DNA of 64,000 bases from Thermoplasmata archaeon (GTDB taxonomy: Archaea; Thermoplasmatota; Thermoplasmata; RBG-16-68-12; JAFNFQ01), in NCBI GenBank assembly GCA_041489255.1, contig JBGPQV010000014.1, forward strand, positions 1-64,000. The letters are read 5' to 3'. A program made the position numbers and the translations under genes. Of this stretch, positions 1,439-19,862 are shown one piece after another (the first letter of the stretch is position 1; every line of letters starts with the position of its first letter). Under the pieces are notes generated by a model. It was not told the origin of the DNA. It made no database searches and worked only from the letters and a program-made list of their open reading frames with translations.

Positions 1439-1442
1439 GCGC

Positions 1443-2729: not shown

Positions 2730-2879
2730 GGAGGAAACCCGTATGCGGTTGAAGAAGCTAAGGGAATCCTCGTTAAAGCCGTTTTTTGATTTCGTTCGCT
2801 AACACTGAGTATTCAACGTGGTGCTTGCCGCCGGTTGCCGCAGACGCGCGCGGCGATCGTCTGAAGAAATCGCCCTCGT

Positions 2880-3083: not shown

Positions 3084-3145
3084 GGTTTCCCCGCGGGGTA
3101 TAGCCACGGCTGGTCAAAATGCTTTGCGGGGCCGCTTGGCCTGGT

Positions 3146-3568: not shown

Positions 3569-3759
3569 CCGCTATCCTCCTCGTAAGTGCGACTTTGTTC
3601 GTCAATCCATCGCAGGTATATAACTCTACCAATCTCGGGACGACCCGTCCATGCAAGGATGTTAGGGCAAATGGAAGGAAATAAAGGAGGTGGGGGGGTT
3701 CGAGCCCCCTTCGTAGGCCACGAGCCCGAGATTCCGGGCCGCCAAGATAGGCTGAGTGT

Positions 3760-4200
3760 CTACATTGGCGGCGGAGCCATCGGGGCGACCGGAGGAGCTG
3801 CTGCCTTTTTCGCCTGTCCCATTCCCAGGCCTGCACCGACGATGAGGATTATGGACCCAATCATGCTGATGTAGATTCCATATCCCACTGCGACGATACC
3901 GCCCGAAAGCAGAGAGACGAGGGTTGCGCTAAGTGCAAAGCCCAACAGGACCATGATGAAGGCGAGTATTCCCATGATCAAGCCGGCTATGCACATGCCT
4001 CGCGAGCCAATCGCCACGAATATCAGGCCGAGTACTCCGAATATCAGCGCAAGCCACCCGAATATGGGGAACATCGCGCCCATGAGGCTCGCCGACTCTC
4101 CTGTTATGCTATTCGTTGCGGTCAGCCATGGCAAAAACATGCCCACAAGGACCAATATGCCGCCTACTATGCCGATTATCCTACCAGAACTCATCGCCAT
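3760..4200 (-). CDS. membrane protein (4 TM)
   Basis: Four hydrophobic helices, FLPW motif, Pro-rich tail. Confidence 0.8.
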   Translation of the reverse strand: MAMSSGRIIGIVGGILVLVGMFLPWLTATNSITGESASLMGAMFPIFGWLALIFGVLGLIFVAIGSRGMCIAGLIMGILAFIMVLLGFALSATLVSLLSGGIVAVGYGIYISMIGSIILIVGAGLGMGQAKKAAAPPVAPMAPPPM

Positions 4201-4442
4201 ATTTATTCCTCAGACCCCCTCCTTCTTCCCTCTGGGGGCCCGATCTTGAATAACCTTCGAATATAATAGTGTTGCCCTCATAAAAGGCGGTGAAAGGACA
4301 TGTCTCCATGGCGAAATCGGTCATCTACCAGGCGAATATGAGGCGAATATGGAGGATTTTCGCAAATCCCTCCACCATGAGGTCAATGGTCCTGACCTAT
4401 GCAGATGCGCTGCGAGGACCAACCCTCGTCATGGAAGGATTC

Positions 4443-5894: not shown

Positions 5895-5934
5895 CAGTGA
5901 AAACAGGCGGCGGTTAAGGGCTTGAGGCAGTCCC

Positions 5935-6771
5935 TCACTCCTCCGTCACGAGCCGCATGAATATGTCCTCCAGGCGCTCGCCCGCCCTGGACCGGATCTC
6001 ATCCAAGGCGCCGATCGCCACTATCCCCCCACGGTTGATTATGGCAAGCCGCGTGCAGAGCTTTTCGGCGATCTCCAGGATGTGCGTGCACATGAAGATG
6101 GTCTTTCCCTTCCTGACATGCTCGGCCAGATAATCCCTCACTTTCCGCTGGAAGACTGGGTCGAGGTTAATGAGAGGTTCGTCCAAGAGCAGGAGGTCCG
6201 GTTCGGGGATGAAGGCGGAGGCCAGCATGATCTTCTGCCTCTGACCCTTCGAGAGGTCGCGGCACAGCACGTCCTTCTTCTCCCTGATGTCGAAGAAGTC
6301 CAACCACTTGTCGACGCGCTCCTGGACTTTGTCCAGATCCCGGATGCGACATATGAGCTCGAGGAACTCCTGGACGGTGAGGAAAGTCGGCGGGGTCTCG
6401 GACTCGGGGACGATCCCCACCTTCCTTTTGAGGGCGATGCCGTCGCTGAAGGACACCCCCATGGTCTCCCCTTCCCCCTTATCCGGGGAGAGCTGACCGG
6501 TGAGTATCCGCACGAGGGTCGTCTTCCCGGCCCCGTTGGGACCGAGGAGACCGAAGAATTCGCCTCTACCGACGGAGAAGCTCACGCCGTCGACGGCACG
6601 GACCTCGCCGAAAGCCTTGGCTATGCCGGAAACCCTGATCGCCGGCGACGACCGAGGAGTCGTTGATGGAGCGCCACCCGATGCGGACATCTCCACGCAA
6701 GAAACGACGGATGTTCTTATTCTCTTCCCCTCGGCTCGCGCTGTTTGATACCGAGCCCTGCTGGCAACCAC
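5935..6771 (-). CDS. ABC transporter ATP-binding protein
   Basis: Walker A GPNGAGKT, signature LSKGQ, Walker B LLLDEP; true start probably near 6690. Confidence 0.95.
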   Translation of the reverse strand: MVASRARYQTARAEGKRIRTSVVSCVEMSASGGAPSTTPRSSPAIRVSGIAKAFGEVRAVDGVSFSVGRGEFFGLLGPNGAGKTTLVRILTGQLSPDKGEGETMGVSFSDGIALKRKVGIVPESETPPTFLTVQEFLELICRIRDLDKVQERVDKWLDFFDIREKKDVLCRDLSKGQRQKIMLASAFIPEPDLLLLDEPLINLDPVFQRKVRDYLAEHVRKGKTIFMCTHILEIAEKLCTRLAIINRGGIVAIGALDEIRSRAGERLEDIFMRLVTEE

Positions 6772-6786
6772 CGCAACTATTAACTC

Positions 6787-7242
6787 ATGGCCGGACCATA
6801 TATTCTATTCGTTCAGGGCTCGCAGGGGTTAGGGGGAATGGGGGAACACCATCGCAGCTTTGGCGAAGCGCTCTTCAGCAGGGTCAGGAGTCGGTGGTTC
6901 GTCTACCTCGCGATGAGCGTGTTCTACTGCCTCGACATCTACCTGACGCTGCTCGTCCTGGGGAGCGGATTCAGCAAGGAGTCGAACCCAGTAAGCCGGT
7001 ACGTGCTGTCCGCCTCCGGTCCTGGAGGCTGGGTGGCATTCCGCGTAATCATGCTCACCATGACGACCGTGGCGCTTCTATCGACGTTCACTCTTGCCAC
7101 AATCTCCCTGAGGCAGGCCGGTCGGGAGAGCACGATCGACAGAGTCGAGGAAATCACCGTCGGGTCGGTCATGTTGTTCTATGCAATCGCCATCGTCCAC
7201 AACCTCGTGGCGATCATGGCGCCTCTTCCTCGCTGGACGTAG
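6787..7242 (+). CDS. membrane protein, DUF5658-like
   Basis: LDIYLT...KESNPV motif plus 3 TM helices. Confidence 0.6.
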   Translation: MAGPYILFVQGSQGLGGMGEHHRSFGEALFSRVRSRWFVYLAMSVFYCLDIYLTLLVLGSGFSKESNPVSRYVLSASGPGGWVAFRVIMLTMTTVALLSTFTLATISLRQAGRESTIDRVEEITVGSVMLFYAIAIVHNLVAIMAPLPRWT

Positions 7243-7262
7243 AGCACCCTAAGAGAAGGGGT

Positions 7263-7286
7263 GCCAGGTGACCGCCGTAGGCCCCC
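7263..7286. repeat. attachment site, left copy (displaced 3' end of rnpB)
   Basis: Identical to 18920-18943; extends to 30 bp with one mismatch (7257-7286 vs 18914-18943). Confidence 0.92.
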
Positions 7287-7323
7287 CTCAGCGCATGGAG
7301 AGTTACCTACGGCAGTCAGACCA

Positions 7324-8277
7324 CTAGCGGATGTAGGCCGAATCATCGGTCTCGGTCTCCTCCTTCTTTGGCGGTTCAAACGTCTTCTCGAAGGCCTCCC
7401 AGTGCCGCTCGTCTTGCCATTGGCGGTAGTGCTGGTAGATCGTCTTCGGGTCAGCCCATCCTCCCTGAGCCTGCAGGTCTTTAACGTCGCCCTTCCACAT
7501 TGTCGCTCCGGTTCTACGGAAGGCACGCGGCGTTATCGTGTCCGGCAAGCCCGCACGGCCGCACGCTCGCCTGATGACCTCGAGCGGGTAGCGGCGGTGA
7601 TGCGGTCGGCCTGGCATGACCTCAAAGAGATAGACTGAAGGCTTATGTCTTTCGATGTAGCGACCTAGAGTTCTGGCGGTCTCCTTGGTGATGAACGGCT
7701 TGACCCTCCGGTTCGTCTTTTGCTGGACCTTGCCATCGATGCAGGGATGGTCCACGTCGAGACGTACCTGAGAGAGACGGACGTTCACCAGATCGCTAGG
7801 CCTCAGCAAGCTGTCGTGTTGCAGCAGCACAAGCGCGAGTTCTTTCAGATTTCCCTGTCTCTCCAGCTCACGCTTGAGCGGAAGCCAGTCAGCCTCTTCG
7901 TCGATCAGGTAGCGGTCTTCCAGCAATTCCTTCGACGGCATCGGGAACCGGAGCGGTTCGTCCTCTTCATCCCGTATCTTCTTGGACCTCAAGTACCAGG
8001 TCAACGCGGGACAAACTACCAGTCTCGAATTGACTCGATACTTCCGGCAGATGATTTGCTGATAGTAGGCGTCGACGCTCTGCGGTGTGATCGGTTCTCC
8101 GTCGAGCCATGTCAAGAAGGCAACCACGTACTGCCAGTATCGATCCAGCGTGGCCTCGTTGACATGGCCCTTCCGTTTTACGAATCCCCGGAAGGCCTCT
8201 TCATCGGAGAGAGCGGGAATCGGCATTATCCGTGCCCCCCGAAGGCTCCTGCTGAGACGTTCAATGATGCTAGCCAC
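7324..8277 (-). CDS. tyrosine recombinase/integrase
   Basis: LLRPSDL (catalytic R), TPRAFRRTGAT, QGGWADPKTIYQHY (W...Y); N-terminal SAM-like domain ATLDRYWQYVVAFL. Confidence 0.93.
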   Translation of the reverse strand: MASIIERLSRSLRGARIMPIPALSDEEAFRGFVKRKGHVNEATLDRYWQYVVAFLTWLDGEPITPQSVDAYYQQIICRKYRVNSRLVVCPALTWYLRSKKIRDEEDEPLRFPMPSKELLEDRYLIDEEADWLPLKRELERQGNLKELALVLLQHDSLLRPSDLVNVRLSQVRLDVDHPCIDGKVQQKTNRRVKPFITKETARTLGRYIERHKPSVYLFEVMPGRPHHRRYPLEVIRRACGRAGLPDTITPRAFRRTGATMWKGDVKDLQAQGGWADPKTIYQHYRQWQDERHWEAFEKTFEPPKKEETETDDSAYIR

Positions 8278-8460
8278 GGACCAAGCTCCGGTCCGTGACG
8301 GTCACTGTCTTCCCCGACAAGTTTCCCCGCATGGGTGTAAGTGCGGTTTTTCTCCTCGTGTTGCTCACCTGCGAGCACCGGTGTGTTTTCCCCATCCACT
8401 CCGGCAGCACGGGAGAGGCCCTCCGAGGGTATAATGGTTGCCAGAACCATTCGGTTATGG

Positions 8461-9138
8461 CTAGCCATTCGACACCTCTGAAACGGGTTGCCGACTATGG
8501 GTAGCCGTTCGTGATGCTGAAACGACGCTTTTGGCAAGCCGCCTTGCGCTCGACGGGGGTATCTGCGTCCTAGTGGTTATCTCGGACCACGAAAGGCCTT
8601 GTGCGCGCAGCTCCACGATCTGCGCAGCCTGGTAGCCGTAGTCCCTCCGGGGACGGTTCGGCGGCTTGCCGCTCCTCGTCTTCCATTCCCCCGTGTCCTT
8701 GTGGATCTCCTTGAGACGGCTGAAGCTCGCCTTGATCCTCTCGCCCTTCCGCTCCGAGCCCATCTTGGCGAGCGTGGCAAAGAGCGAGATCACGGCGTCC
8801 CTGAAGGGGCCGAGCGTGCTGAGGTACATCTCCTGGTGGCTCACCCAATCGAGGCCGAGCTCCTGAAAGCGGTAGATAAGGTCGATCGTGTCCTTGACTC
8901 CTTCTCGGGAGATCCTGTCGAGCGCCCAGAAGACGACCACCTTGAACTTGCCATGATGGGCGTCGAGCAGGAGCTTCTCGAGGGCGGGTTTGTGCTCTTC
9001 CTTCCCCCGCACGTTCTCGTCGACGTACTCCGCATAGACCTCCCATTCCCGAGGTTTGCAGAACTGCCTCAGCTCGCGCAGCTGGTTCTCCACTTCCTGG
9101 CGGTCCGTCGACACGCGAGCATAGAGGGCGGCCTTCAT
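8461..9138 (-). CDS. serine recombinase (resolvase/invertase) with C-terminal HTH
   Basis: MKAALYARVSTDRQ, LDRISR, HTH QGLSWSEITTRTQIPPSSARRL; ATGA overlap with the upstream ORF. Confidence 0.93.
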   Translation of the reverse strand: MKAALYARVSTDRQEVENQLRELRQFCKPREWEVYAEYVDENVRGKEEHKPALEKLLLDAHHGKFKVVVFWALDRISREGVKDTIDLIYRFQELGLDWVSHQEMYLSTLGPFRDAVISLFATLAKMGSERKGERIKASFSRLKEIHKDTGEWKTRSGKPPNRPRRDYGYQAAQIVELRAQGLSWSEITTRTQIPPSSARRLAKSVVSASRTATHSRQPVSEVSNG

Positions 9139-9377
9139 TCCTTCGTGCCCTCCATCCTCTTCTCCCGGCGATCGCGTCGCCTCAGAACTCGCAGGAGCCT
9201 CGCTGCCAGGCGGGGAACCCTCTTGCCCTGCAGGGCGCGGCGGTTCTCGATCGACACGCAGCGACTGCAGATGTAGTGACCCGCCGGCCACATCCCGCGC
9301 TTGACGGGGAAGCTCTCGGGGTCGTTGCCGTAGAGCTGCACGTCGCGGCGCGTCCCGCAGTAGGAGCAGCGCATCAT
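9135..9377 (-). CDS. small Zn-finger protein
   Basis: CSYC...CSRC; coupled start/stop overlaps on both sides. Confidence 0.65.
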   Translation of the reverse strand: MMRCSYCGTRRDVQLYGNDPESFPVKRGMWPAGHYICSRCVSIENRRALQGKRVPRLAARLLRVLRRRDRREKRMEGTKE

Positions 9378-9664
9378 CACAGTTCGACCCTCCTCTCCAC
9401 GCCAGAGCACGCATGACTTTTCGTGCAGCTCTGGCACCGCAACATCAGGCAGTTCGGGCAACTCCTGAGTTCGCTCCGCTCAAACGACTTCCCACATTCG
9501 CAGCACTCCGTCACATCCGGCGCCGTTATCGGAGCAGTCGCCTTGGCGCGTTCTTTCTCGATCAGGATCTCAAGGTCCTTCCTGATGGCGGTGACGGCAT
9601 CTTCGACGGACTCCAGCTTCGCGGAGATCATGACGAGTCGGCCAACGTCGATATCCGCTGTCAT
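9377..9664 (-). CDS. coiled-coil plus Cys-rich Zn-binding protein
   Basis: MTADIDVG... coiled coil, then CECGK...CPNC...CQSC...HAC; ATGA overlap with the parB-like stop. Confidence 0.7.
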   Translation of the reverse strand: MTADIDVGRLVMISAKLESVEDAVTAIRKDLEILIEKERAKATAPITAPDVTECCECGKSFERSELRSCPNCLMLRCQSCTKSHACSGVERRVEL

Positions 9665-10986
9665 CGAGAGTCTCCCCGGATCCTGAGGTCTATCTCGTCC
9701 AGGACCCCGTTGCGGGCTTTCCCCTTCGCCTCGAGGTCCCGGAGCGCCTCGAGCGTCTCCAGGTCCTTGCTCGGCAGCCGGCTGCACACCTGGGCCACCG
9801 TGCCGTCGAGGACCTTCGCGTCGATCGCCTTCGCCTTGACCTTCTTGACGTCGACCTTTGGCAGCGACTTCTTCTCCCATGCACGGAACGCCTCTTTCAT
9901 CTCCTTGCGCCGCCTGTTGTCGTACGCCTGCACCTGCACCTCGGTCTTCTCGCCGGTCGAGTACGCGTGAGGCACGAGGTAGACGCTGAGGTCCTTCTTC
10001 ACCGCCGACGTCCAGTGGACGTTGAACCCGTAAGACCCAAACACGATGCTCCTGACGTCTCCCTCCTTCACCTGCTCGAGCATCGCTTTCGTGATCGAGA
10101 GCGCGTCATGGAAGCTCCTGATCGTCTGCCCCTCCGTCGCGTCCCTCTTCACCGCGCGCCGCGGTGTCGGCGAATAATCGTAGGCGCGATCTCGTGTGTC
10201 GATCTTGATTGCCTTTCCGGTGTTGCCGTTCCAGCAGTGACCGCCGTCACAGGTGACGTCGTGATCGTTCTTGTGCTCGTGCAGGAACTTCTTAGGAGGG
10301 GATCCGCACGTCGGGCACGGCTTGAAGGCGGCGAACTTCTTCATCCTCGCCTCCTCCTGGCGCCAGGCGCCGATCCTCCACACAGCTTCGTTCTTGAATT
10401 CCTCCGCGGGGACCTCCTGGTCCTCGACGAGCTCGGCGAGGCTCTCCACGAGGTCACGTCCATCGTCCAGGTCTTTCGCCCCTGCCGGGATCCCGGCGAG
10501 GACCTCCGCGTGGTGGGGCGAAATTATTCCGCGGCGAATAAGCCCCTGGACCTTGCTGCTGAACTTCAATAGGGCGAGGCGCTTCGCGACGTGCGACTGA
10601 CTCTTCCCGATCTTCTTCGCGACGTCCTGCTGCCTGCACTCCGTGGAGTCGATGTATGCCTGCAGGGCCCTCGCCTCGTCCACCGGGTCCAGGTCCTCGC
10701 GCTGCAGGTTCTCGACCAGCTGGGCCTCGACTATCTCCGCGGCGTTCATCGTCCGCTCGACTACGGGGACCTCTTTCAGTCCCGCCAGCTGCGCCGCCCT
10801 GTACCGCCGGAAGCCGCAGACCAGGCGGTGCCTGTGGTCCTCGCCGTGCTGCGTGACGATCAGCGGCTCGAGCACGCCCTGGACCTTGATCGACGCGATG
10901 AGCTCCGCCAGGTCCTTGTCGGACGTCTCGCGGATGTTGCCCGTGGCGTTGATCAGGTTGAGCGGGAGGGTCTTCAGGCCACTCAT
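9661..10986 (-). CDS. ParB/Spo0J-domain protein with Zn ribbon and extended C-terminus
   Basis: ELIASIKVQGVLEPLIV, LVCGFRRYRAA (GxRR), ENLQREDL, HTH QQDVAKKIGKSQSHVAKRL, CPTC...CDGGHC. Confidence 0.9.
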   Translation of the reverse strand: MSGLKTLPLNLINATGNIRETSDKDLAELIASIKVQGVLEPLIVTQHGEDHRHRLVCGFRRYRAAQLAGLKEVPVVERTMNAAEIVEAQLVENLQREDLDPVDEARALQAYIDSTECRQQDVAKKIGKSQSHVAKRLALLKFSSKVQGLIRRGIISPHHAEVLAGIPAGAKDLDDGRDLVESLAELVEDQEVPAEEFKNEAVWRIGAWRQEEARMKKFAAFKPCPTCGSPPKKFLHEHKNDHDVTCDGGHCWNGNTGKAIKIDTRDRAYDYSPTPRRAVKRDATEGQTIRSFHDALSITKAMLEQVKEGDVRSIVFGSYGFNVHWTSAVKKDLSVYLVPHAYSTGEKTEVQVQAYDNRRRKEMKEAFRAWEKKSLPKVDVKKVKAKAIDAKVLDGTVAQVCSRLPSKDLETLEALRDLEAKGKARNGVLDEIDLRIRGDSR

Positions 10987-11483
10987 TGACTCACCGTCTC
11001 CTTCTTTGCCGGCAGAGCTCGCAGCAGCTCGCCGGAGTCGATCGCGCCGCCGCGTATCTTCGGCACTATGAGATCTCCGATGGTCGCGCTGCTGCCGTCC
11101 GGCAGCGCGCCGACGATCTCGGCGAGGAACTCCGATTCGACGGTCGTGAGTCCGTAGTACACGGCTTCGAGCTTGGACTTCAGCCACCAATGGAGCAGCC
11201 GCATGGATTGAGCTTGATTCTGCGTGCCGTCTCTCTTCGCGAAGACCGGCGGCGAGACGCGCACGGTGATACGCTGCTGCATCGTGCCGGCGGTCTGCAT
11301 CTTGAGCACGAACTCGATCTGCGATTGTCCGGCCCGCGTCGTGGTCCAGCGGACGGCTTCTGCGCCGTACTCGTACAGCAGCTTCGAGATCTCGGCCTGA
11401 GTTCGCTCCGGCGGCACGGTCGTGTCGTAGTATGGAGTCCGCTTCGTCTTCATCGTCTCACTTCCAGTTGAATAGCCCTTCAT
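10983..11483 (-). CDS. conserved MGE/phage-type hypothetical protein
   Basis: TVPPERTQAEISKLL..YGA and LKSKLEAV..G....ESEFL..LPDG..TIGD resemble a family I recall from phages and prophages; coupled overlaps. Confidence 0.7.
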   Translation of the reverse strand: MKGYSTGSETMKTKRTPYYDTTVPPERTQAEISKLLYEYGAEAVRWTTTRAGQSQIEFVLKMQTAGTMQQRITVRVSPPVFAKRDGTQNQAQSMRLLHWWLKSKLEAVYYGLTTVESEFLAEIVGALPDGSSATIGDLIVPKIRGGAIDSGELLRALPAKKETVSQ

Positions 11484-11782
11484 CGACCGCCCCCGTTCTC
11501 TGGCTCGCCGAGTTCAAGTGGCACGTGGACCCACGCCAAACACCGCGGGCAAAACGACCCGAATCCATCGGGATAGCTCGGGCGGTCCCTGCAACGATGC
11601 AGGAGGACTTTTCCCCCGCAATGAGGGCACGTCCCGACTTTGAATGGCGAATCGGGAGAGAGATGGCGGCGGCGTGATCTCCCTGGAGGGGAGGCGGATG
11701 GGACACACGCCGCCGCCGGAAGAGGAATCATAAACAGGAACTTGGCGAGAACGAGGGAATTGAGAGAGGGCGGGAGGGTCAC
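11480..11782 (-). CDS. small Zn-ribbon protein
   Basis: CPHCGG...CPRC; GTG start overlapping the helicase stop with GGAGG upstream (alternative ATG at 11731). Confidence 0.55.
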   Translation of the reverse strand: MTLPPSLNSLVLAKFLFMIPLPAAACVPSASPPGRSRRRHLSPDSPFKVGTCPHCGGKVLLHRCRDRPSYPDGFGSFCPRCLAWVHVPLELGEPENGGGR

Positions 11783-14307
11783 GAACTGCCTCCTTGGAGC
11801 TCCTCGGCCTCTTTCGGTGGCAACTCGAGGCGGACTCGGCAGGCAGCGATTTGTTCGGCGGCCAGGGGATGCCCATTTCGCGCCATCATGTCCTTGACCT
11901 GTGAGAGCGCGAGACCGGGGGGCAATTTCTTGTCCTGCATGCGGAGATCGTTGACGAGCCGGAGGCTTTCCTCGACGAGGGGGTCCTGACTCTCTCGCTC
12001 GCTCTGCGTCTGAGTCTCCTGTACGGAGGCCATTTTCGGTGTAACAGCGTAACACCCTGAAGTCTCCATGGAGGAGGAGGGTGTTACAATGTTACGTAAC
12101 ATGTTACATTCCTGTGTAACAAGAGTCTCTCCATTGGGTGGGTCGCTTGATACACTGTTACACCCTTTTTGACCTCTGCTCTCACGCGCGCGTAGGTCCT
12201 CTTCGAGCGTCCGTTGTACCTCCTCCTCCGGGGCCGGTGCACCCTCCGGCACGAACACCGCTCGTTCCGTCTTCTTGTCGAACCGCTCTACCTTGGCTTC
12301 CTCCCCATCCTTGTCGAGCACAATCTTGCGCGGAATCGCCCACGTATCCGCGGCCATCTGCCCGAGGGACTTCAGGGACGATATCTGCATGTCCGGGAGT
12401 GCCTGACGATTGTACTCGTCCAAGATCGGCTTTGTCACCCACACACCCGGGATTTGCACGTCCGCGACATCGGCGGTGTCTTGCTTCCAGATCTCGCCCT
12501 CCCCGCGGATGTCCTCGATGCCGCCCGACCGCACGATCCGGTTCTTCACGCGCCACATCGCGAAGAACGACCGGAAGGACTCGAGGTGCGACTCCGCACC
12601 CTCGTACGTCGAGGCCTCGACCGGCAGGACCACGTCGCGGAGGAATGCCTCCACGCTAGGCGGGGCCCACACGATCCCATGCTTCCGGAACAAGAGCTCC
12701 CACATCCGGAGCCCCATCAGTACGACGGCCCAGGCCTGCGGCCGGCGTACGTCCTGGAACGTGCCCCGGTATGCGCGCGTGACCTCCGTCTCGAGGACGT
12801 GAATCCGCGCGACGAGGTCCGCCATGGTCCCGTACGCGGCCACGGCCTCGCGGGCGAGCGCGACACCGATCGGCCGCAACTGTGCGCGCAGCTCGTCCGC
12901 CTTCCTCTTGTTGGTCTTCCGTCGCGTGCGCTGCATCGCGTCGAACTTCGGCGCGATGAACCGGGCGAGCACGGACCCGGACTTCACCGGGAACGCGTTT
13001 CCCGTGATCATGAGGACCGCGCGCGATCGGTACGTCGTCATCCCGAGGTCCTGCGTCCCCCGCTGGAGCGCGATCTCCCGCTCCGATGCGGACTTCAGCG
13101 TCGCCCCGAGCTTGCGGTAGTCGAGCTTCTCGCCCTCCTCGATCCACAGTGGCGTGCACGCGGAGTCGATGAACGCGCCGAACCGATACGGCGAGTCGAG
13201 GGTGTCGCCTGGCACGGACTTCCTCCCGTACAGACGCTCGGAGAAGCATTCGAGGACGAATGACTTGCCGAGGCCGGACTCGAGGGAATGGTTGTACACG
13301 TGCGGCACGATCACGTCGTGGGCCCGCAGGCGCATCGCGAACGGCGCGATCGCCGAGAGCGCCATCGTGGGGTACACCTCGTATGGGTGGAACAGCGTCG
13401 CGAGTTCCATGTATGCCGCCAGGTCTTCGGGCCGAGGTTCGCACGCGATTGCCTCCCGCATCTCGCGGAGCGCGGTTCCCTCCTCCTGGAGGGGCGCCAT
13501 CGGGTCCGTGCACAGGTCGAGCTTCCCGCCCTCGTCTTCGTACACGCCGAAGGTCGCGTGGGCCTTCATGGGCGTCGGTGCGAAGTGCAGGAGAACGTGA
13601 TTCAGGACGTCGTTCGCGTGTCCATGCGCGACGGTCTTCGCCTCCCTGTCGAGCCGCTTCCGCAAGGCCTCGGCAGTGACGATGATCTCGCGGTCGAGTT
13701 TTACTTTGAAGAAATTGTCGCCATCCAGGTCCACCTGCTGCAATGGCCGAACGTATCCGAAGACGACTGGGATGTCCTCCTCGTGGTCACCATGCTTGAC
13801 GATGAGATCGATCCCCTGTGGGGTCCAGCGGATTCTCCTTGACTTACTGATCTCCCATTCGTTGGAGGGCGCATCCGTCGCCGAGTCTGGAGGGAACTCC
13901 GCGATGAGGCTCTCGACGTAGCTCTTCGTGAACCGCGCGCGGCTCGGGTTATCGCCGCCAAGCTGCAGGTGCTCCAGGATGTCTGAAAGAGGACGTCTGC
14001 CCCCGTCGGTCGCGGTGAACTGAGGACAGACTATGTTGTACCAGTCCTCGGCCCGGGCGCGCTTGTGCTCCGAGAGGTCCACGAGTATCGTCGAGTCCTC
14101 GCCACTCGTCGACCGACCGCAGCCGCCGAGGTCTCTCGGACAGCGGTCGGGAGGTCCCTGGGCAGTAGGAGGAATTGCGACCTCGGTGCCGCAGCGGACG
14201 CACCAGAACAAAACGTCCGAGGGAGAGTTCAGTGGATCGCCCCCGTCTGCTCGAGTCCATAGACAACGAGGATGAAGCCCCCGACTCCCATGCCAGAATT
14301 CAGCCAA
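11779..14307 (-). CDS. replication protein: N-terminal Zn finger plus SF3/DUF927-like helicase ATPase
   Basis: CVRC...CPRDLGGC; Walker A SGLGKS, Walker B LWIEE, motif C VLMITGN, Arg finger VLARF; true start probably ~14210-14232. Confidence 0.8.
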   Translation of the reverse strand: MAEFWHGSRGLHPRCLWTRADGGDPLNSPSDVLFWCVRCGTEVAIPPTAQGPPDRCPRDLGGCGRSTSGEDSTILVDLSEHKRARAEDWYNIVCPQFTATDGGRRPLSDILEHLQLGGDNPSRARFTKSYVESLIAEFPPDSATDAPSNEWEISKSRRIRWTPQGIDLIVKHGDHEEDIPVVFGYVRPLQQVDLDGDNFFKVKLDREIIVTAEALRKRLDREAKTVAHGHANDVLNHVLLHFAPTPMKAHATFGVYEDEGGKLDLCTDPMAPLQEEGTALREMREAIACEPRPEDLAAYMELATLFHPYEVYPTMALSAIAPFAMRLRAHDVIVPHVYNHSLESGLGKSFVLECFSERLYGRKSVPGDTLDSPYRFGAFIDSACTPLWIEEGEKLDYRKLGATLKSASEREIALQRGTQDLGMTTYRSRAVLMITGNAFPVKSGSVLARFIAPKFDAMQRTRRKTNKRKADELRAQLRPIGVALAREAVAAYGTMADLVARIHVLETEVTRAYRGTFQDVRRPQAWAVVLMGLRMWELLFRKHGIVWAPPSVEAFLRDVVLPVEASTYEGAESHLESFRSFFAMWRVKNRIVRSGGIEDIRGEGEIWKQDTADVADVQIPGVWVTKPILDEYNRQALPDMQISSLKSLGQMAADTWAIPRKIVLDKDGEEAKVERFDKKTERAVFVPEGAPAPEEEVQRTLEEDLRARESRGQKGCNSVSSDPPNGETLVTQECNMLRNIVTPSSSMETSGCYAVTPKMASVQETQTQSERESQDPLVEESLRLVNDLRMQDKKLPPGLALSQVKDMMARNGHPLAAEQIAACRVRLELPPKEAEELQGGSS
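12038..12164. repeat. iteron-like cluster, putative replication origin
   Basis: Eight GTTAC/GTAAC pentamers in ~125 bp, including the perfect palindrome ATGTTACGTAACAT at 12089-12102. Confidence 0.65.
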
Positions 14308-14474
14308 AAGCTATCACCCCATTTTGTCCGCCAGAGTCCAAGCATTCCTAGAAGCAGCAGACCTCCCGCCAGCACAAAAGCGTTCAGCGGTATGGCCCAC
14401 GTGAGGAAGATCAGCAACAGCAGCAGTGCGAGCAGCCCCCCCGCCAACCCGCTCTCATCGCTTCTCAGGTCCAT
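14229..14474 (-). CDS. small membrane protein (3 TM)
   Basis: Hydrophobic 81-aa ORF; TGATG overlap with the upstream ORF. Confidence 0.65.
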   Translation of the reverse strand: MDLRSDESGLAGGLLALLLLLIFLTWAIPLNAFVLAGGLLLLGMLGLWRTKWGDSFWLNSGMGVGGFILVVYGLEQTGAIH

Positions 14475-14653
14475 CAGACCCGCCTCCGTGCACGCTGGAC
14501 CTTATGCACCAGCGATTTTCGAATTGACCAATCACCGTCCCGCCTCTGAAGGTTTATGAAATTCTCATCCTCCGAGACAATCGTCCCCCGGAGGACGCGG
14601 AGTCGCCCATCCTCTTCGAACACGACCTCATCTTGATCCGCATCAGCAGCCAT
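14474..14653 (-). CDS. 59-aa Sm/Hfq-like protein (below ORF-track cutoff)
   Basis: MAADADQDEVVFEEDGRLRVLRGTIVSEDENFINLQRRDGDWSIRKSLVHKVQRARRRV; RBS GAGGGTGA; coupled to the next gene; fold inferred by eye. Confidence 0.6.
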   Translation of the reverse strand: MAADADQDEVVFEEDGRLRVLRGTIVSEDENFINLQRRDGDWSIRKSLVHKVQRARRRV

Positions 14654-14685
14654 GTTTTCACCCTCAGTTCAGGTTCGTCTTTCCC

Positions 14686-14865
14686 TCATATGATCACTAC
14701 TTTTCCCGCCCTGAGCTTCCGGACGAGTATGCGAACAACGGCAGCCATCGACAGCCCGTGCTTCGTCGCCTCCTCTTTGAGGATAGTGTGGGTCTGCCGA
14801 TCGAGCGCGACCATCGCCAGCCTTGTCTCGTGTTCCCCGACCTTTCCCACTTCTGCGCTTTCCAT
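14686..14865 (-). CDS. ribbon-helix-helix (CopG-like) repressor
   Basis: AMVALDRQTHTILKEEATKHGLSMAAVVRILV, beta-alpha-G-alpha pattern; first gene of the operon. Confidence 0.8.
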   Translation of the reverse strand: MESAEVGKVGEHETRLAMVALDRQTHTILKEEATKHGLSMAAVVRILVRKLRAGKVVII

Positions 14866-14873
14866 AATGTTCC

Positions 14874-14916
14874 TAAAGGTCTGCAATATGCTCTTAGAGG
14901 TCTGCAACCCATAAAA
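14874..14916 (-). promoter_or_regulatory. TATA-like box plus tandem operator repeats for the element operon
   Basis: AGGTCTGCAA at 14877-14886 and 14898-14907 (21-bp period), lying between a minus-strand TTTTAT (14916-14911) and the RHH start. Confidence 0.6.
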
Positions 14917-15311
14917 CCGGTAAACTTTCTTGACTATCCGAACAGCCCGCAGTCCGCCATGATTTGAAGCGCTGAGACAGCAGTTACCCTCTCTACGTTG
15001 CGACCCTCCCCCTACACCGAGTGTAGGTGTGGATGTCCTGGTCCTTCTCCATGAAAGACTTCTCGAGAACGACTCGGCCGAACTTCTTCGTTTACTCTCT
15101 CGGAGGCGGGACGATCGCTCGCCTGTACGTTCATGTCTGTCTCCGCCCGCGACGAGGTTTAGGCTTTAGTGAGGTCATTGTTTATCCATGCAGCTACGAA
15201 TGTACGTGGACCAGTTGCAAATCTACATAGTACTACGTAGTTCATCCGCGGATAATCTGACCGATTCCCTCGCCGACCGGGTCCGGCCGGGCCATCGACG
15301 CGCAGAGTGTC

Positions 15312-15355
15312 CGAGGACCTCCGCGTGGTGAGGCGTGATTATTCCGCGGCGAATA
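15312..15355. repeat. 44-bp copy of an internal segment of the parB-like gene (10497-10540)
   Basis: 41/44 identical; both contain the dyad TATTC-CGCGGC-GAATA. Confidence 0.85.
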
Positions 15356-15379
15356 GACACCAGGACCGCGTACCACAAC

Positions 15380-15410
15380 GGAAAAGGTGGGGCCTGGTCC
15401 GCCAGGCCCC
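15380..15410 (-). terminator. hairpin plus U-tract terminator
   Basis: GGGGCCTGG-TCCG-CCAGGCCCC stem, followed on the minus strand by CCTTTTCC, just after the stop at 15419. Confidence 0.6.
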
Positions 15411-15418
15411 TTCCGTGG

Positions 15419-15568
15419 TCACTGAGCGGCCTCCAGGATCTTGTCGGCTCGCTTTTGTCCCACGTTATAGACGGAGAGGCCGTGACCATCCTTCTTCATG
15501 TAGATGTTCCAAGTCACGTGCCCCTTCGTGCTGCGCTTGCTCCAGAGTACCACTTTTTGGATTCCCAT
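15419..15568 (-). CDS. small basic hypothetical protein
   Basis: MGIQKVVLWSKRSTKGHVTWNIYMKK...; TATA-like AAAGCTATAT upstream and terminator downstream. Confidence 0.55.
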   Translation of the reverse strand: MGIQKVVLWSKRSTKGHVTWNIYMKKDGHGLSVYNVGQKRADKILEAAQ

Positions 15569-15986
15569 TGTTATGACCAACCCCCGCCAGGTACTCTGAC
15601 TACATATAGCTTTGTTCTCATGCCGGCCGCCAGGCACAAAGGCGGCGGGCGTTCTCCCCATTGTTGTGACCAAACTTCTGTGTGGACACGCCTAGCCGCC
15701 GTGCAACCCCGCGTCGCCCGATCCCATCCGGACGGCCCCCTGTTCCCACGCCGAAAAGAATAAAAATCGTGCTAGGGAGTGGCACGTCTGCCTCACCGTC
15801 ATTGCGTGTCAAATTCCATCCCTCCATGACGCTCAGCTCCTCGAGTCGCTGATCAGGATCCGGGGAGCTCGGCGGATCTCAGCTGGACTCCGCGACGGGC
15901 TGAAAAGAATAAAAATGCCGAAATCACGCTGCTCGAGCAATCAGGCTCGCCGCAACCTTCAAGACATTCCCGAGGTTCAATGCTCG

Positions 15987-16151
15987 ATGTCCATCAAGTG
16001 CGAGTGCTGCGGGAAAGCTGAAGCTGCCGTCTACTGTCCCGTATGCAAGAAGTGGGAGTGCGTTCTCTGTTTCGGTGCGGTACGATTGGATTGCGACAAC
16101 TGCAGAAGAAGACGAACTCGATCGCCTCCCGTTCCACTAGCCCCATTGTGA
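15987..16151 (+). CDS. B-box-like Zn-finger microprotein
   Basis: CECC..AEAAVYCPVCKKWECVLCF....DCDNC; GAGGT upstream. Confidence 0.6.
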   Translation: MSIKCECCGKAEAAVYCPVCKKWECVLCFGAVRLDCDNCRRRRTRSPPVPLAPL

Positions 16152-16502
16152 AGCCGGAACTCAGCCCGTTCGCCTTCTTGACGGACGTCGGCGCCGGCCC
16201 GCGGGCGGGGGACCCACGCCCTGGTGAGCTGCAGAGAGATCGTGCACGTCGACCAGGCGGGAGATCGTGAGCTGCAGGATACTGAGATTCGGTCGATGGT
16301 GGTCCTCACGCTCGAGAGAGAGATGTACACCAGGGACTCGTGCCTTGGCGGGAGACGTGAGATGGCGGGCACGGTGAGACCGTCTTCACGATCGCGTCAA
16401 GTCCGCTTCCCCATGTTCCCTCGGAGTGTCCTAAATCTTGCGATCGGAGCCGTTCCTTCATGAACGACGTCGCACCTGGTCAGCTGCTCGAGAGAGAGTC
16501 TC

Positions 16503-16697
16503 CTAAATCTCTGGCCTTGGTCCTCTTTCTCCGTCAAACTCTGCAGCATGATGTCTGCAGTAGTCCGCGACAATGACAACATCAGGGAGAGGCCATCTCT
16601 TCGCACCTTCCGAGTTGGGATCTTGACGACATTCGAAGTGCTCCGTCGCGAGTTCGTCACAACCTTCAGCGTCACAGAATCCCTTTCTCTTGGTCAT
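16503..16697 (-). CDS. small Cys/His-rich hypothetical protein
   Basis: CDAEGC...YCRHH; GAGAGG upstream. Confidence 0.5.
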   Translation of the reverse strand: MTKRKGFCDAEGCDELATEHFECRQDPNSEGAKRWPLPDVVIVADYCRHHAAEFDGERGPRPEI

Positions 16698-16750
16698 CGT
16701 AGTCGCCTCTCTCTTGTGTCTGAAGTTGGGGGCGGACTCTTAATCCTATC

Positions 16751-17686
16751 TCACCGTAGTAGTTGATTGGGAGAGCCCTCCATAGGAGAGTTGCCCTGGA
16801 ACGGTGAATTGAAGCATTTCTCCCCCCCTTTTTCATGGAGAAGGACGACCGAGCCGAACTGCGTGACCATGCTGGAGATCGCGGCCTTGAACCCGAGCGA
16901 TCGGTCGGCCGAGAACTGAGAGAGGTAGTAGTCGTGGGCGCCGTCCGGCCCCGTCAGGTTGAGAAGGTCGCCGGCGGCCTCTATCTTCCTGGAGCCGTAA
17001 TCGAAAAGCTTCACGCTCATTCCCATCTCGGCGACGTGCAAGTAGGCCTGCTCCGCCGGAGCAGGGCCGATACCCGCGTCCAACGTCACGTTCACTTCGG
17101 ACAGCTGTCCGGTGTTCCAGTTACCGCCGCTGCACGCCTGCGTCCACGTCGCCACGTAGACGTTCCAGGCCGGGGTCATCGTGAACTGCTGCACGGGACA
17201 TCCTTGCATTCCCCCCATGTCCCTGTTCGATACGTTGAGCCGGAGGTACGCTATCCCCGATGGATCCACCGTGGCGAGGGCCCTCGCCCAGACCGAGACG
17301 CTGGCGACGTCCTCCCCCGTGTCCGTGAACGGGCGCGTGTCGAACAGTACCCACCCGCTGTTGACGATGCCCGACGAACCCACGATGTAGGTCGGGTCCT
17401 GCGAGTCGCTCACGCATTGCGTGTGATTCGTGCAACCGCCCATGTTCGTCCAGTCCACGAATTGGAAGCCGAGGTCTCCCAGCAACGTCGCGTTCACCCA
17501 AGGTGACGACCTTGCCCAGTTGCACTCTGGCGAGTTCTCCGGGTACCTCCCGTCCACATCGTAGACGCACGTCCAGTTCAGGTCCGTCCTGGCCCGCGCT
17601 CCTGGCGGGACGATGACCAGCGATCCCGCAACGACGCTCAGCACCAACACTAGACACACGATTCGTCCGATTCTGTTTTCTCTCAA
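16751..17686 (-). CDS. secreted beta-rich protein, possibly C-terminally truncated
   Basis: Signal peptide RIGRIVCLVLVLSVVAGSLVIVPPGARA; Cys pairs; TTG start overlapping the upstream stop; composition changes near 16830. Confidence 0.7.
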   Translation of the reverse strand: MRENRIGRIVCLVLVLSVVAGSLVIVPPGARARTDLNWTCVYDVDGRYPENSPECNWARSSPWVNATLLGDLGFQFVDWTNMGGCTNHTQCVSDSQDPTYIVGSSGIVNSGWVLFDTRPFTDTGEDVASVSVWARALATVDPSGIAYLRLNVSNRDMGGMQGCPVQQFTMTPAWNVYVATWTQACSGGNWNTGQLSEVNVTLDAGIGPAPAEQAYLHVAEMGMSVKLFDYGSRKIEAAGDLLNLTGPDGAHDYYLSQFSADRSLGFKAAISSMVTQFGSVVLLHEKGGEKCFNSPFQGNSPMEGSPNQLLR

Positions 17687-18768
17687 GTCGTCGCCTCCTT
17701 TTTCAAAGCATCAATCAATCTGGGCGGGACGTCCTCGATCGCCCGCTCATGCCATTCTTCTTCGTAGCTCCACTCCGCGCTCGCGAGGACTTCTTGGACG
17801 GCCTGGTCGATGACGGGCTGGAACGAGCTCAGGTCCGGCAACCTCGCCTCGGGGAACGCGACCTCCAGGTCGACGGCCTCACCGTCCTCGATCTCCACGG
17901 CTCGGGCGGCTTGCTCGATTCTCCGGGTGACCTCCCCCAGGAGGCCCGCGCCGACCGTGGCCGCGGCCTCTCGGATCCATAACGTCCGCTTTGCCAGCTC
18001 GGTGGGGCTGATGTCCAGCCCGAGGATTACCATGCGGGCCTTGACGTAGGCGAGGGTCGGGTTCTCGATCCCCATTCGGGTCTTCAGGACCGCGAGGCTC
18101 GAGATCTCGTACCTGATCTCGCCCCTGTACTTCGGGGGCTCGGGTTGCGAAGGCAGGTTCAGCCGCTCTGCGTCCCCGTAGAGCAGGCCGACGTCCTGGG
18201 CCGCCTCGATGATGAGATCGAGGTGACTGGTCCGGCGGGAGCCCTCGCCGAACACTCGGTAGATCCCGGTCCCCGCGCGGTCCGCGTCATGGAAGATGAG
18301 GACGGGCTTGTCGTCGTCCTGGAGCAGCTGGCGGACCAGGCGGGTAGGGAACCCCTTCCCGGCGACGACGACTCCCCAACCGTAGTCGGAGAGCTCTTTG
18401 ATCTTGTCGGCCTCGCCCGCCTTCTCCACGAATATCCAGCCGCGGTTCTGCTCCCACGCGTCCGGGAGGTCCTCGATGGGGTTCTTCGTCCCCTGGTCGT
18501 AGAACCAGCCTTCGGGCTTGGCCTCGGGCCGCTGCAGCCCCTCGTTCTGCTCGAGGGAAGTCCACACGTCGTCGCGGTAGGTCGAGTAGCCCTGGTCGGT
18601 CAGGAACCAGTCGAACTCCTCCTGGGTGATCCTCTTGCCCAGCTCGGGGGCGATGAGGTCTCTCACGATGTAATAAGAGTCCCGTTGGAATTCGTCCTTG
18701 AGCAGTTCGTAGTTGGCGCGGATGATCTCCCTCACGACTTTCCAGAGGTTCGTCTTGGCCTTGGTCAT
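17683..18768 (-). CDS. stand-alone Topo VI subunit A/Spo11-like protein (catalytic Tyr plus TOPRIM)
   Basis: QRDSYY (RDxYY), WIFVEK, AGKGFP, IFHDADRAG (DxD), DVGL, RYEISSL; RBS AGGTGA. Confidence 0.85.
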   Translation of the reverse strand: MTKAKTNLWKVVREIIRANYELLKDEFQRDSYYIVRDLIAPELGKRITQEEFDWFLTDQGYSTYRDDVWTSLEQNEGLQRPEAKPEGWFYDQGTKNPIEDLPDAWEQNRGWIFVEKAGEADKIKELSDYGWGVVVAGKGFPTRLVRQLLQDDDKPVLIFHDADRAGTGIYRVFGEGSRRTSHLDLIIEAAQDVGLLYGDAERLNLPSQPEPPKYRGEIRYEISSLAVLKTRMGIENPTLAYVKARMVILGLDISPTELAKRTLWIREAAATVGAGLLGEVTRRIEQAARAVEIEDGEAVDLEVAFPEARLPDLSSFQPVIDQAVQEVLASAEWSYEEEWHERAIEDVPPRLIDALKKEATT

Positions 18769-18919
18769 GTTCTCACCTGGATGAGCTGAAAAATAAAGGG
18801 CGCCCCCGCCCGCCAGGGCGGAGGCTTGGGGGGAAACTAGTCGGGGTAAAACTCGGAACGTCTCTATGGTAGGGGCCTACGGCAGTCGGTAATCCTATGG
18901 AGAAGACTGCCGTAGGGGG

Positions 18920-18943
18920 GCCAGGTGACCGCCGTAGGCCCCC
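18920..18943. repeat. attachment site, right copy (intact 3' end of rnpB)
   Basis: Identical to 7263-7286. Confidence 0.92.
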
Positions 18944-19278
18944 TTCTGTTCTAACGGCATTTGACTTAGCGTCCTACCTGGCCTATCGGCCTTTTTGGAC
19001 TTGCTCCGATGGGGAGTCGCCGTCTCACCAGTCGGCTCCGATCGCTCGGCTCCTGCACTCCGCCGCCAGCGTCCTCGTCATTACGTGCCGCGATTCATCC
19101 TCGGCGGCGGCTGTGTCGTTTCTGCGCCCTTGCCATCCCTCTCGGGATACCGGCTTGCGCCGGTCCACCAGCGTCCCCGCGGCCTCCGCGAGAGGCGCGC
19201 GGTTCGCTCGCCGGTTTGGAGGGGGGACCTTCCTCAGCAACCACGTTGGTCACCGTCGGCCGTCCACGGTCTCCTGGC
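18920..19278 (-). ncRNA. rnpB: RNase P RNA (archaeal, type A-like)
   Basis: Minus strand has GAGGAAGGUCCCCCCUCC (CR I), GCGCAGAAACG (CR II), GGUGAGACGGC (CR III), GGAGCAAG and AACAGAAGGGGGCCUAC (CR V); P1 helix GCCAGGAGACCGU/GCGGUCACCUGGC closes the ends. Confidence 0.95.
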
Positions 19279-19415
19279 GGGACTCCAACAGAGTTCCCGC
19301 CTAAAATGCTTTCCGTTGGCGGACGAAGGAATTGACCTCCAGTGATTGATCAGTGCAGCTCACTTCAAGAGGCGATGACCGTCATCTATAAACCGCCAAT
19401 TTGCTTGCTCCAATC

Positions 19416-19862
19416 GTGCTCAGAATCCGGCTTTTCGCACCGAACGACGTCGGTCCAGTCATGGATTTGGTGAAGGCCTCCTTGAGGGAGAACTACCCGC
19501 CGAACCTCTACCTGGACGTCCACCACTGGTGGAAGGAGGGATTCCTCGTGGCGGAGAACTCCGGCCAGGTCATCGGGTTCATGGCGTGCGTCGTGAACGC
19601 ACCGGGCCAGGCCAGGGTGCTGATGCTCGCCATCGACGCACCTCACAGGAACCAAGGCATCGGGACGCAGCTCATGACCGCGTTCGTCAGAGAGTGCGCC
19701 GTCAGGGGGATGAAGTCGATCGAGCTCGAGGTCAGGCAGAGCAACCTCGCAGCCGTCAGATTCTACAGGCGCCATGGCTTCGAGATCACCTACACCCTCG
19801 AGCATTTCTATACCGACGGCGAGGGCGGCTACAAGATGATCAAGCACATCGGGGCCGCCTGA
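19416..19862 (+). CDS. rimI: RimI/Ard1-like N-acetyltransferase
   Basis: LAIDAPHRNQGIG, LEVRQSNLAAVRFY, FYTDGEGGYKM; GTG start chosen. Confidence 0.88.
   Translation: MLRIRLFAPNDVGPVMDLVKASLRENYPPNLYLDVHHWWKEGFLVAENSGQVIGFMACVVNAPGQARVLMLAIDAPHRNQGIGTQLMTAFVRECAVRGMKSIELEVRQSNLAAVRFYRRHGFEITYTLEHFYTDGEGGYKMIKHIGAA

Follow-up and report, generated by a model that had tools for sequence, protein, structure and literature searches.

A probable integrative element at the 3' end of a Thermoplasmata archaeon's gene for RNase P RNA and an integrase lineage linked to that gene

The DNA analyzed here is a window of 64,000 nucleotides (nt), positions 1 to 64,000 of contig JBGPQV010000014.1 (assembly GCA_041489255.1) of a Thermoplasmata archaeon, and its subject is a segment of 11,657 bp that is bounded by a direct repeat and abuts rnpB, the gene for RNase P RNA. 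The source genome, termed G000 in the analysis, is a 41-contig draft of 2.74 Mb with an estimated contamination of 2.7%. In the window, an identical 24-mer is found in direct orientation at 7263-7286 and 18920-18943. A repeat search placed this 24-mer within a 33-nt similarity (7257-7289 and 18914-18946) with two mismatches and a start-to-start spacing of 11,657, which bears out a preliminary description of this DNA in which an exact 24-bp direct repeat was proposed to bound an element of that length. By our own arithmetic, the chance expectation for an exact 24-mer occurring twice within 14.5 kb is about 4e-7. When the whole 2.74-Mb genome was searched for the 24-mer with up to 5 mismatches, four sites were found: the two window copies, an inverted copy with one mismatch at C6:15706-15729, and a site with five mismatches at C14:39547.

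The right-hand copy of the repeat belongs to rnpB. The Rfam model of archaeal RNase P RNA, RF00373, matched the minus strand at 18923-19275 with 122.8 bits (gathering score, 84; E value, 7e-34) over model positions 1-288 of 288, and this match is the sole rnpB in the whole G000 genome. The interval 18920-19278, previously assigned to this RNA from the sequence, accordingly passes the covariance model. As the match runs to 18923, the repeat is therefore made up of the last 21 nt of rnpB and 3 nt past the end of the match. According to the structure line of RF00373, the repeat contains GGGGG of the P4 3' strand, a linker, and the P1 3' strand, the same two helices that the preliminary description had named. 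The locus is thus laid out like an element inserted in a stable RNA gene, one of its direct repeats forming the 3' end of a gene that is intact and the other being a displaced fragment; what is targeted is the RNase P RNA recognized by RF00373 and not a transfer RNA (tRNA) or transfer-messenger RNA (tmRNA) gene, of which ARAGORN found none in the window. On its left side, the left attachment site (attL) runs on into the original downstream flank of rnpB. The pyrimidine tract reported earlier from this flank is present, the minus strand of 7248-7262 reading ACCCCTTCTCTTAG.

The two mismatches within the 33-nt similarity are distributed in an orderly manner: attL carries the variant of the left (A) flank on its left and the variant of the element on its right, and the right attachment site (attR) shows the reverse. 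This layout fits what would be expected if the chromosomal site (attB) and the site of the element (attP) had differed at both edges and the crossover had fallen inside the 24-nt core. Furthermore, a 12-nt motif of the core, CCTACGGCRGTC, has 5 matches in the 64-kb window compared with 0.02 expected, all of them at the attachment sites: one in each core and one each at 7306-7317, 18876-18887, and 18905-18916. These motifs are candidate integrase-binding sites of attP. An inverted core-like motif directly follows the stop codon of the integrase gene in 13 of the 13 loci of the same integrase clade (clade 1, see below) that were printed, and it varies in step with the core of the respective locus. 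On the element side of attR, a G+C-rich hairpin at 18825-18790 and the tract that follows it, both contributed by the element, could end rnpB transcripts inside the element. Sites of this hairpin-and-T-tract type are not above the level of shuffled sequences in the region, and position is the sole argument for this candidate terminator.

The only genome of the same genus available for comparison, G001, lacks the element. Similarity to the left flank (window 598-7286; 93% identity) stops at the core, and similarity to the right flank (18914-60992; 90-96% identity, with 96% from 18914) starts at the core, so that the element is absent and the break lies exactly at the repeat. The interior was not found in G001 apart from a 260-nt relic of the 5' end of one gene, the Toprim gene described below; a protein search found no integrase homologue there, and of the replication protein G001 holds only a relative of the C-terminal domain. 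The possibility that relatives carry the interior as conserved chromosome, raised in the preliminary description, did not hold for G001. The comparison that it also proposed, of related genomes for an empty site, gave a mixed result: G001 lacks the element with a break at the repeat, but the site has been rearranged. In G001, the order is left flank, core, region X (C6 15735 down to 2980), inverted right flank, rnpB, core, and region Y (C6 15700 onwards), while in G000 it is left flank, attL, element, attR with rnpB, right flank, and, further on, X, an inverted core, and Y. Two differences therefore separate the genomes: the element itself, and a stretch of about 62 kb that is inverted and has its ends in core copies, namely the rnpB tail and the third copy on C6. 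The end of C14 and the start of C6 overlap by 136 nt, as do two other contig ends, and the join between them is favored by synteny with G001. Searches with proteins from the flanking regions A, B, X, and Y found no synteny around rnpB in other genera.

The third core copy, C6:15706-15729 (7707-7730 of locus L024), is an inverted copy of the rnpB tail with its one mismatch plus 6 nt of the rnpB body, and it stands between genes for surface proteins (among them a 1,468-amino-acid M28 peptidase-PKD protein) and a gene for an H+-pyrophosphatase. Beside it, inverted, the first 88 codons of the element's Toprim gene persist as a relic (G000 C6:15928-16191 and G001 C23:48304-48567; 88-91% identical at the protein level). 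The relic suggests that an older, related element was once present at these sites in both species. Further along C6, a segment of about 49 kb (19536-68605, from 11568 of L024) is missing from the syntenic stretch of G001. This segment opens with a 389-amino-acid PF00589 integrase, has no tRNA gene in its first 4.5 kb, and is probably another integrated element.

The junctions of the element were also found in independent assemblies. Contigs of four sediment metagenome runs were compared with window positions 6300-19700. The attL junction was bridged with no differences by record 1 of run X1, which is possibly the source sample, and by record 17 of run X3, and the attR junction was bridged by record 7 of X1. 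The contig depth in X1 was 11.7 for the element and 11.9 and 12.6 for the flanks. No joint skipping 7287-18943 and no back-joint of a circle were present in the contigs of the four runs; contigs drop rare variants, and this result supports no inference either way. A joint between opposite strands at 18514/18914, seen in all four runs, was considered as a form of the element and rejected, as it represents the paralogous C6 locus. The same runs also bear on the RNase P RNA itself. With about 353 nt, rnpB is longer here than in relatives (about 275-283 nt) and scores lower (123 bits compared with 170-215 bits), and contigs of other organisms skip 78-82 nt at 19030-19111 and 19134-19217 inside rnpB. 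The genus appears to have two expansion segments in its RNase P RNA.

Close to attL lies the gene for a tyrosine integrase. Its PF00589 domain (residues 143-290) scores 51.4 bits against a cut-off of 27.1, and the protein is XerA-like, with a score below the NCBIfam cut-off. The open reading frame (ORF) is complete, its stop at 7324 is 37 nt from the repeat, and the core lies outside the gene; the integrase is hence unsplit, as had been proposed. The canonical catalytic set of tyrosine recombinases is R, K, H-x-x-R, H/W, and Y, with box II reading H-x-x-R-H. A search of 5.8 billion clustered proteins yielded 17 relatives, 14 of which were aligned. K170, R234, R237, R238, W257, and Y267 are invariant in all 14 aligned sequences and R142 is conserved in at least 90%, which upholds the earlier observation of RxxR in place of HxxR; catalytic roles were assigned by eye from this alignment. 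The closest integrase in plasmid and phage collections is at most 26% identical, and the integrase used as a single query gave no match in a search of genome contigs.

The integrase family is concentrated in one order. It was found by protein search in 9 of the 79 genomes of the order, G000 included, and by profile search in 8 of 401 genomes of the class, with 8 of 64 in this order versus 0 of 337 elsewhere. The preliminary description had called for a survey of what lies next to the homologues, and the rnpB 3' end was indeed found beside 7 of the 8 genomic loci other than this one: six have a match of 26-45 nt to the rnpB tail and one a weak match of 18 nt, located 22-290 nt past the integrase gene, while the eighth locus is cut by a contig end. 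Among metagenomic loci, a core lies 36-293 nt downstream of the integrase in 21 of 30, and 8 of the 9 loci that lack one have at most 198 nt of contig left. A maximum-likelihood tree of 30 integrases (L042, interrupted by an in-frame stop, was left out, as were the 8 of 38 loci whose match spanned under 220 profile positions) resolved two clades with support of 100/100. Clade 1 (13 rows, 39-69% identical to this integrase) includes the present element; the integrase stands at the far end of the element, beside the displaced fragment, in 9 of its loci and in the other orientation in none. In clade 2 (17 rows, 30-37% identical), the integrase converges on the gene end in 12 loci. The other 9 rows of the tree were not assigned an orientation. 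In line with these orientations, Rfam detected a full-length rnpB beside six clade-2 loci, a seventh being cut by a contig end, and beside none of eight clade-1 loci. Collectively, the integrase lineage is linked to rnpB in the genomes and metagenomes searched.

Copies of the rnpB tail are widespread in the order. The core pattern was counted at up to 3 mismatches in the 79 genomes, with the reversed pattern as a control, and gave 154 copies, compared with 2 matches for the control. At least one copy is present in 61 of the 79 genomes, at least two in 34, and at least three in 18, with maxima in G034 (12), G044 (10), G002 (9), and G007 and G018 (8 each). Several rnpB matches in these genomes lie at contig ends. 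In several genomes, direct core copies just 3' of a full-length rnpB bound short intervals. In G010, where Rfam finds a full-length rnpB, the interval is 4.8 kb long and holds an integrase and an MCM-like helicase. Other intervals have no integrase: one of 2.6 kb in G030 (L045) with a catalase, one of 4.1 kb in G038 (L077) with an amidohydrolase and a short-chain dehydrogenase, and those of 0.7-1.4 kb in G042 (L079), G058 (L081), and G024 (L048). In G044 (L078), likewise with no integrase, direct core copies separate an S9 peptidase gene and a Zn alcohol dehydrogenase gene, in a stretch where Rfam found no rnpB. Decay of former insertions, non-autonomous cassettes moved in trans, or something else may account for the integrase-less intervals. 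In one family, comprising G002, G018, G008, and G023 (L049-L058 and L063), the copies stand 20-35 nt after large genes for NosD/beta-helix, fn3, or TSP3 surface proteins; three right-flank sequences recur from locus to locus, one of them in two families. At one surface-protein locus, three core copies follow in a row with one ORF in each interval. A 436-amino-acid PF00589 ORF ends 204 nt before one of the L049-L058/L063 copies.

The features of the locus are listed in the table. Real genes were judged by bias in G+C content at third codon positions (GC3), and all lie on the minus strand; the ORFs at 9377-9880 and 11480-12055 look spurious by this measure.

Table. Features of the element and its attachment sites, in window coordinates. 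HTH, helix-turn-helix; G001, the sister genome.
Feature	Position	Strand	Basis
attL: displaced copy of the rnpB 3' end	7257-7289 (exact core 7263-7286)		Repeat search; G001 similarity to left flank ends at 7286
12-nt inverted copy of inner part of core (CCTACGGCAGTC), candidate integrase-binding site	7306-7317	+	Motif search; just past integrase stop
Tyrosine integrase, 300 amino acids as called in public data (ORF open up to 8277)	7324-8226	-	PF00589; GC3 0.72
Small serine recombinase of resolvase/invertase type, C-terminal HTH	8461-9414	-	PF00239 95.9 bits; HTH_23 below cut-off; GC3 0.73
ParB-type partition protein; true start probably later than 11190	9661-11190	-	PF02195 67.7, PF17762 66.9, TIGR00180 135 bits; GC3 0.83
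166-amino-acid protein of unknown function	10983-11483	-	phrog_17260, E 5e-14; GC3 0.80
Putative replication protein, helicase-type module, 810 amino acids as called (ORF open to 14307)	11779-14211	-	GC3 0.81
81-amino-acid hydrophobic (membrane) protein	14229-14474	-	Translation; no family match; GC3 0.70
73-amino-acid ribbon-helix-helix-like protein, candidate regulator or excision helper	14686-14907	-	PF22513, E 4e-4, below cut-off; GC3 0.70
No convincing gene; candidate replication origin or control region	14910-16750		No GC3 bias; G+C dips to 0.56-0.59; no family matches
311-amino-acid putative secreted or membrane-anchored protein, several N-x-T/S sites	16751-17686	-	Hydrophobic N-terminal signal by eye; no family match; GC3 0.81
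Stand-alone topoisomerase VI subunit A-like (Mini-A-like) protein, 361 amino acids	17683-18768	-	PF21180 34.3 bits
G+C-rich hairpin followed by TTTATTTTT on the rnpB strand, candidate terminator	18790-18825	-	About 100 nt past rnpB 3' end
Two further 12-nt core-like motifs, element side of attR	18876-18887; 18905-18916	+; -	Motif search
attR: core completing the working rnpB	18914-18946 (core 18920-18943)		Repeat search, RF00373; G001 right-flank similarity starts at 18914
RNase P RNA gene (rnpB), complete, only copy in genome	18923-19275	-	Rfam RF00373

The largest gene encodes a protein of 810 amino acids whose family has 241 representatives at E values of at most 1e-3 among 1.84 billion proteins. 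An N-terminal Prim-Pol domain (PF09250) is fused to it in one of four close homologues, and among nine longer relatives scanned, Prim-Pol was found in four and PriCT_1 in one. GLGKS and ITGN motifs were recognized by eye. We read the protein as the helicase module of a primase-helicase replication protein. Neither the protein nor its profile matched PDB sequences, and a pattern scan of IMG/VR found no relative of the family. Both this gene and the Toprim gene are rare in the order. A relative with 40% identity over most of the length lies at G035 C5:70525-72135, and only the C-terminal 90-105 residues recur at G000 C18:25117-25377 and G001 C15:6558-6887, in frames of 685-691 amino acids; these relatives point to further mobile elements with common modules.

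The stand-alone topoisomerase VI subunit A-like protein, referred to here as the Toprim protein, matched PDB entry 1d3y_A over the Toprim part only (E value of 2e-5 with the profile). The residues R29, Y33, E115, D161, D163, G166, R219, and E221 do not vary in any of the 17 homologues compared. No match to it was found in the phage collection, while a homologue with 43% identity lies on a 39-kb IMG/VR contig together with genes for an integrase and a large terminase subunit. By type, ParB is a canonical partition protein, with its N-terminal and HTH domains (PF02195, PF17762, and TIGR00180), and no ParA-type ATPase was found among the ORFs of the element that were scanned. A 56-nt direct repeat, 88% identical, is present at 10497-10552 and 15312-15367; one copy encodes the stretch GLIRRGIISPHHAEVL of the ParB HTH, and the other encodes a similar peptide in a doubtful 88-amino-acid ORF of the weakly coding region. 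Partial duplication of parB could explain this repeat, as could a binding site. Consistent with the preliminary description, no capsid, portal, terminase, packaging, or conjugation genes were recognized in the element with Pfam, NCBIfam, PHROGs, or PADLOC. The element was also considered as a defense island with a Wadjet/Gabija-like Toprim system; this idea was dropped, since PADLOC found no defense systems in the element and ParB is of the canonical partition type, and its single match, a weak one of a methyltransferase to the ParB N-terminal domain, was read as chance.

These observations can be joined in a model of integration that is drawn by analogy with elements of tRNA genes. The element would consist of window positions 7287-18919 plus one 24-nt copy of the core, an 11,657-bp plasmid-like circle carrying an attP in which about 33 nt of the host's rnpB 3' end are copied. 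Its own tyrosine integrase would recombine attP with attB, the rnpB 3' end, somewhere inside the 24-nt identity. The copy borne by the element would complete rnpB, therefore leaving the essential ribozyme gene whole, and the displaced original tail would stay behind as attL next to the old downstream flank. The attP reconstructed in this way would hold four of the 12-nt motifs, one in the core and three in the arms. Judging from gene content, the free form would be replicated by the primase-helicase-type protein and partitioned by ParB, its multimers would be resolved by the serine recombinase, and the topoisomerase VI-A-like protein would act on the DNA of the element. We put the probability that the segment is, or recently was, an rnpB-targeting integrative element at roughly 0.85.

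Several points weigh against this interpretation. The integrase has an arginine (R234) in place of the canonical catalytic histidine, so that box II reads R-x-x-R-R; one integrase relative, L100, has no core in the 2 kb of contig left to it; and some genomes are rich in core copies and have no detectable integrase of the family, G007 and G030 having no PF00589 match at all at E values of at most 1e-5. G001 does not present a simple empty site, an additional inversion of about 62 kb being needed to relate the two genomes, and this inversion requires that the end of C14 be joined to the start of C6 in G000, which is one of two possible joins. Pfam recognizes no domain in the 810-amino-acid replication protein itself, the protein is without a relative of solved structure, and its role rests on domains fused in relatives and on motifs seen by eye. 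No excisionase was recognized, the sole candidate being the sub-threshold ribbon-helix-helix ORF, and neither a circular junction nor an empty site was observed, so that present-day mobility is unproven.

A rival reading is that of a fixed island that integrated at rnpB in the past, no longer excises, and is kept for its cargo. The depth of the element contigs, equal to that of the flanks in the four sediment runs, the lack of a recognized excisionase, and the abundance in the order of integrase-less, core-bounded intervals that look decayed or non-autonomous are consistent with such an island. However, the repeats are still identical over 24 nt, the large genes are all open and keep a coding GC3 bias, the integrase keeps all family-invariant residues, and the sister species lacks the element, and we consider this explanation unlikely. 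Two others are far less probable still. That the contig is a chimera joined at a short repeat is scarcely credible: the assembly is a 41-contig draft with 2.7% estimated contamination, and in one run the contigs break at the attL core (X2 records 9 and 10), but records of X1 bridge both junctions, record 17 of X3 bridges attL without differences, and the depth is even over flanks and element, so that the assembly artefact considered in the preliminary description is not upheld. It is also very improbable that the interior is ancestral sequence lost from G001, with the repeat produced by recombination between scattered rnpB-tail copies. The G000/G001 inversion does have its ends at core copies, and such copies are scattered through many genomes; against this, no housekeeping gene is present in the interior, which is made up of genes for an integrase, a recombinase, partition, and replication, these genes are missing from nearly all of the 79 genomes of the order, and the tie between the integrase lineage and rnpB ends recurs in unrelated contigs.

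As to the kind of integrative element, a cargo of replication, ParB, and recombinase genes without virion or conjugation genes is therefore read best as that of an integrative plasmid, and we slightly favor a plasmid over a virus-related element. ParB together with a resolvase-type recombinase forms a plasmid-maintenance set, no capsid, portal, terminase, or packaging gene is recognizable, and the replication-protein family is without an IMG/VR relative by pattern scan. All three points speak against a cryptic provirus or virus satellite, in which the 311-amino-acid glycoprotein-like protein and the small membrane protein would be components of a virion or vesicle. Such an origin seems doubtful to us, although the Toprim homologue on the terminase-bearing IMG/VR contig would suit it, as would the match of one ORF to a PHROG of unknown function and the occurrence of Mini-A proteins in viruses and proviruses, as reported in the accessible part of one study (PMC7671362). 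The earlier proposal of a new family of integrating plasmids or satellites holds for the integrase and the attachment site but not for the cargo, as other rnpB-linked elements carry genes different from those of the present one.

For the order as a whole, we offer the tentative and rather speculative view that units bounded by rnpB tails have been inserted, stacked, shuffled, and perhaps exchanged by a dedicated integrase lineage, as an integron-like system built on an essential ribozyme gene that also drives inversions. If true, the units would range from self-replicating elements, such as the present one and the 4.8-kb interval of G010, to integrase-less cassettes of one or two genes, and the same sites would drive large chromosome inversions like that between G000 and G001. 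Judging from the repeated use of the site, the short cassettes whose genes are adaptive, and the inversion that separates the sister species, rnpB would seem to be a hotspot of genome plasticity in the order.

As a textbook rule, mobile elements of prokaryotes integrate site-specifically at the 3' ends of tRNA or tmRNA genes, and elements targeting these gene ends were reportedly treated by Williams in 2002. Such elements encode a tyrosine integrase, carry an attP that copies the 3' end of the RNA gene, leave a displaced fragment, and build up in tandem at the site. The element described here resembles them in its tyrosine integrase, in the RNA gene rebuilt by the copy in attP, and in the displaced 3' fragment that forms the far repeat, and its mechanism, by analogy, would match the known one. 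It differs from them in that the target is the RNase P RNA gene and in that the integrase lineage is found only with rnpB ends. What is new is the target, which is a gene for an essential ribozyme, together with a dedicated lineage of integrases that is confined, as far as searched, to one archaeal order. With rnpB, a third essential stable RNA gene joins the known sites, one preferred by a whole integrase lineage in an uncultured archaeal order. Finders of islands and proviruses that are restricted to tRNA and tmRNA genes will miss rnpB elements, and draft genomes of the order tend to break at rnpB. The integrase and its site of about 33 bp would also provide a compact, testable recombination system for archaea without genetic tools.

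Among archaeal integrases, those of the SSV1 type have attP inside the integrase gene, which is split upon integration. Partition of this kind is ruled out here by the complete ORF and the core outside it. The integrases of the pNOB8 type and of TKV/pTN3-like elements stay intact on integration, and the present one is like them in being unsplit with the core outside the gene.

The Toprim protein works like Mini-A by the criteria given in the accessible part of Takahashi et al. (PMC7671362), which treats type IIB topoisomerase relatives of mobile elements. In common with Mini-A, it is an A-subunit-like protein on a putative mobile element without a B subunit, no GHKL/Bergerat domain being found in any ORF of the element scanned, and it has the 5Y-CAP tyrosine in R-x-x-Y/F-Y (R-x-x-Y-Y here; R-x-S-Y-Y in the family), the Toprim glutamate, and DxDxxG. 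It departs from Mini-A in the T2BI box, which is RYEISSL in this protein and R[VY]E[IL]S[AS]L across the family instead of xWELDAL and is nearer to RVELNAM, the box given there for Topo VIII; and its carrier has no recognizable virion genes.

Integrons have been reported in Archaea (PMC9668308; bioRxiv 10.1101/2022.02.06.479319), and a comparison with them, limited to what the accessible text describes, concerns the related genomes and not the element in the window. The likeness lies in intervals of one or two genes between copies of one recombination site near a tyrosine recombinase gene. In contrast to integrons, a copy of the rnpB tail serves as the site in place of an attC hairpin, the genes differ in their orientation with respect to it, an integrase is missing from the vicinity of many arrays, and no equivalent of attI or Pc was identified, in a comparison in which no attC/IntI model was run.

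A search of the full-text literature found no report of rnpB as an attachment site, in keeping with the preliminary description, which knew of no characterized archaeal element of this kind; the matches used rnpB only as an annotation item or phylogenetic marker, and the TIGER/Islander paper and its supplements lie outside the coverage, so that an earlier listing is possible. The closest parallel to the choice of target that was found is phage phiEf11, which integrates in ffs, the 4.5S RNA gene, with a 27-nt identity core near the integrase gene (PMC12540744). In the accessible part of that 2025 paper, ffs is presented as a novel RNA target, and the non-coding RNA targets listed are tRNA/tmRNA and csRNA, not rnpB. 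As far as that text describes phiEf11, the two systems are alike in using a stable RNA gene other than a tRNA gene and in having a core of similar length (24 nt here) near the integrase; phiEf11 is a tailed phage of bacteria at ffs, whereas the element described here is archaeal, plasmid-like, and located at rnpB.

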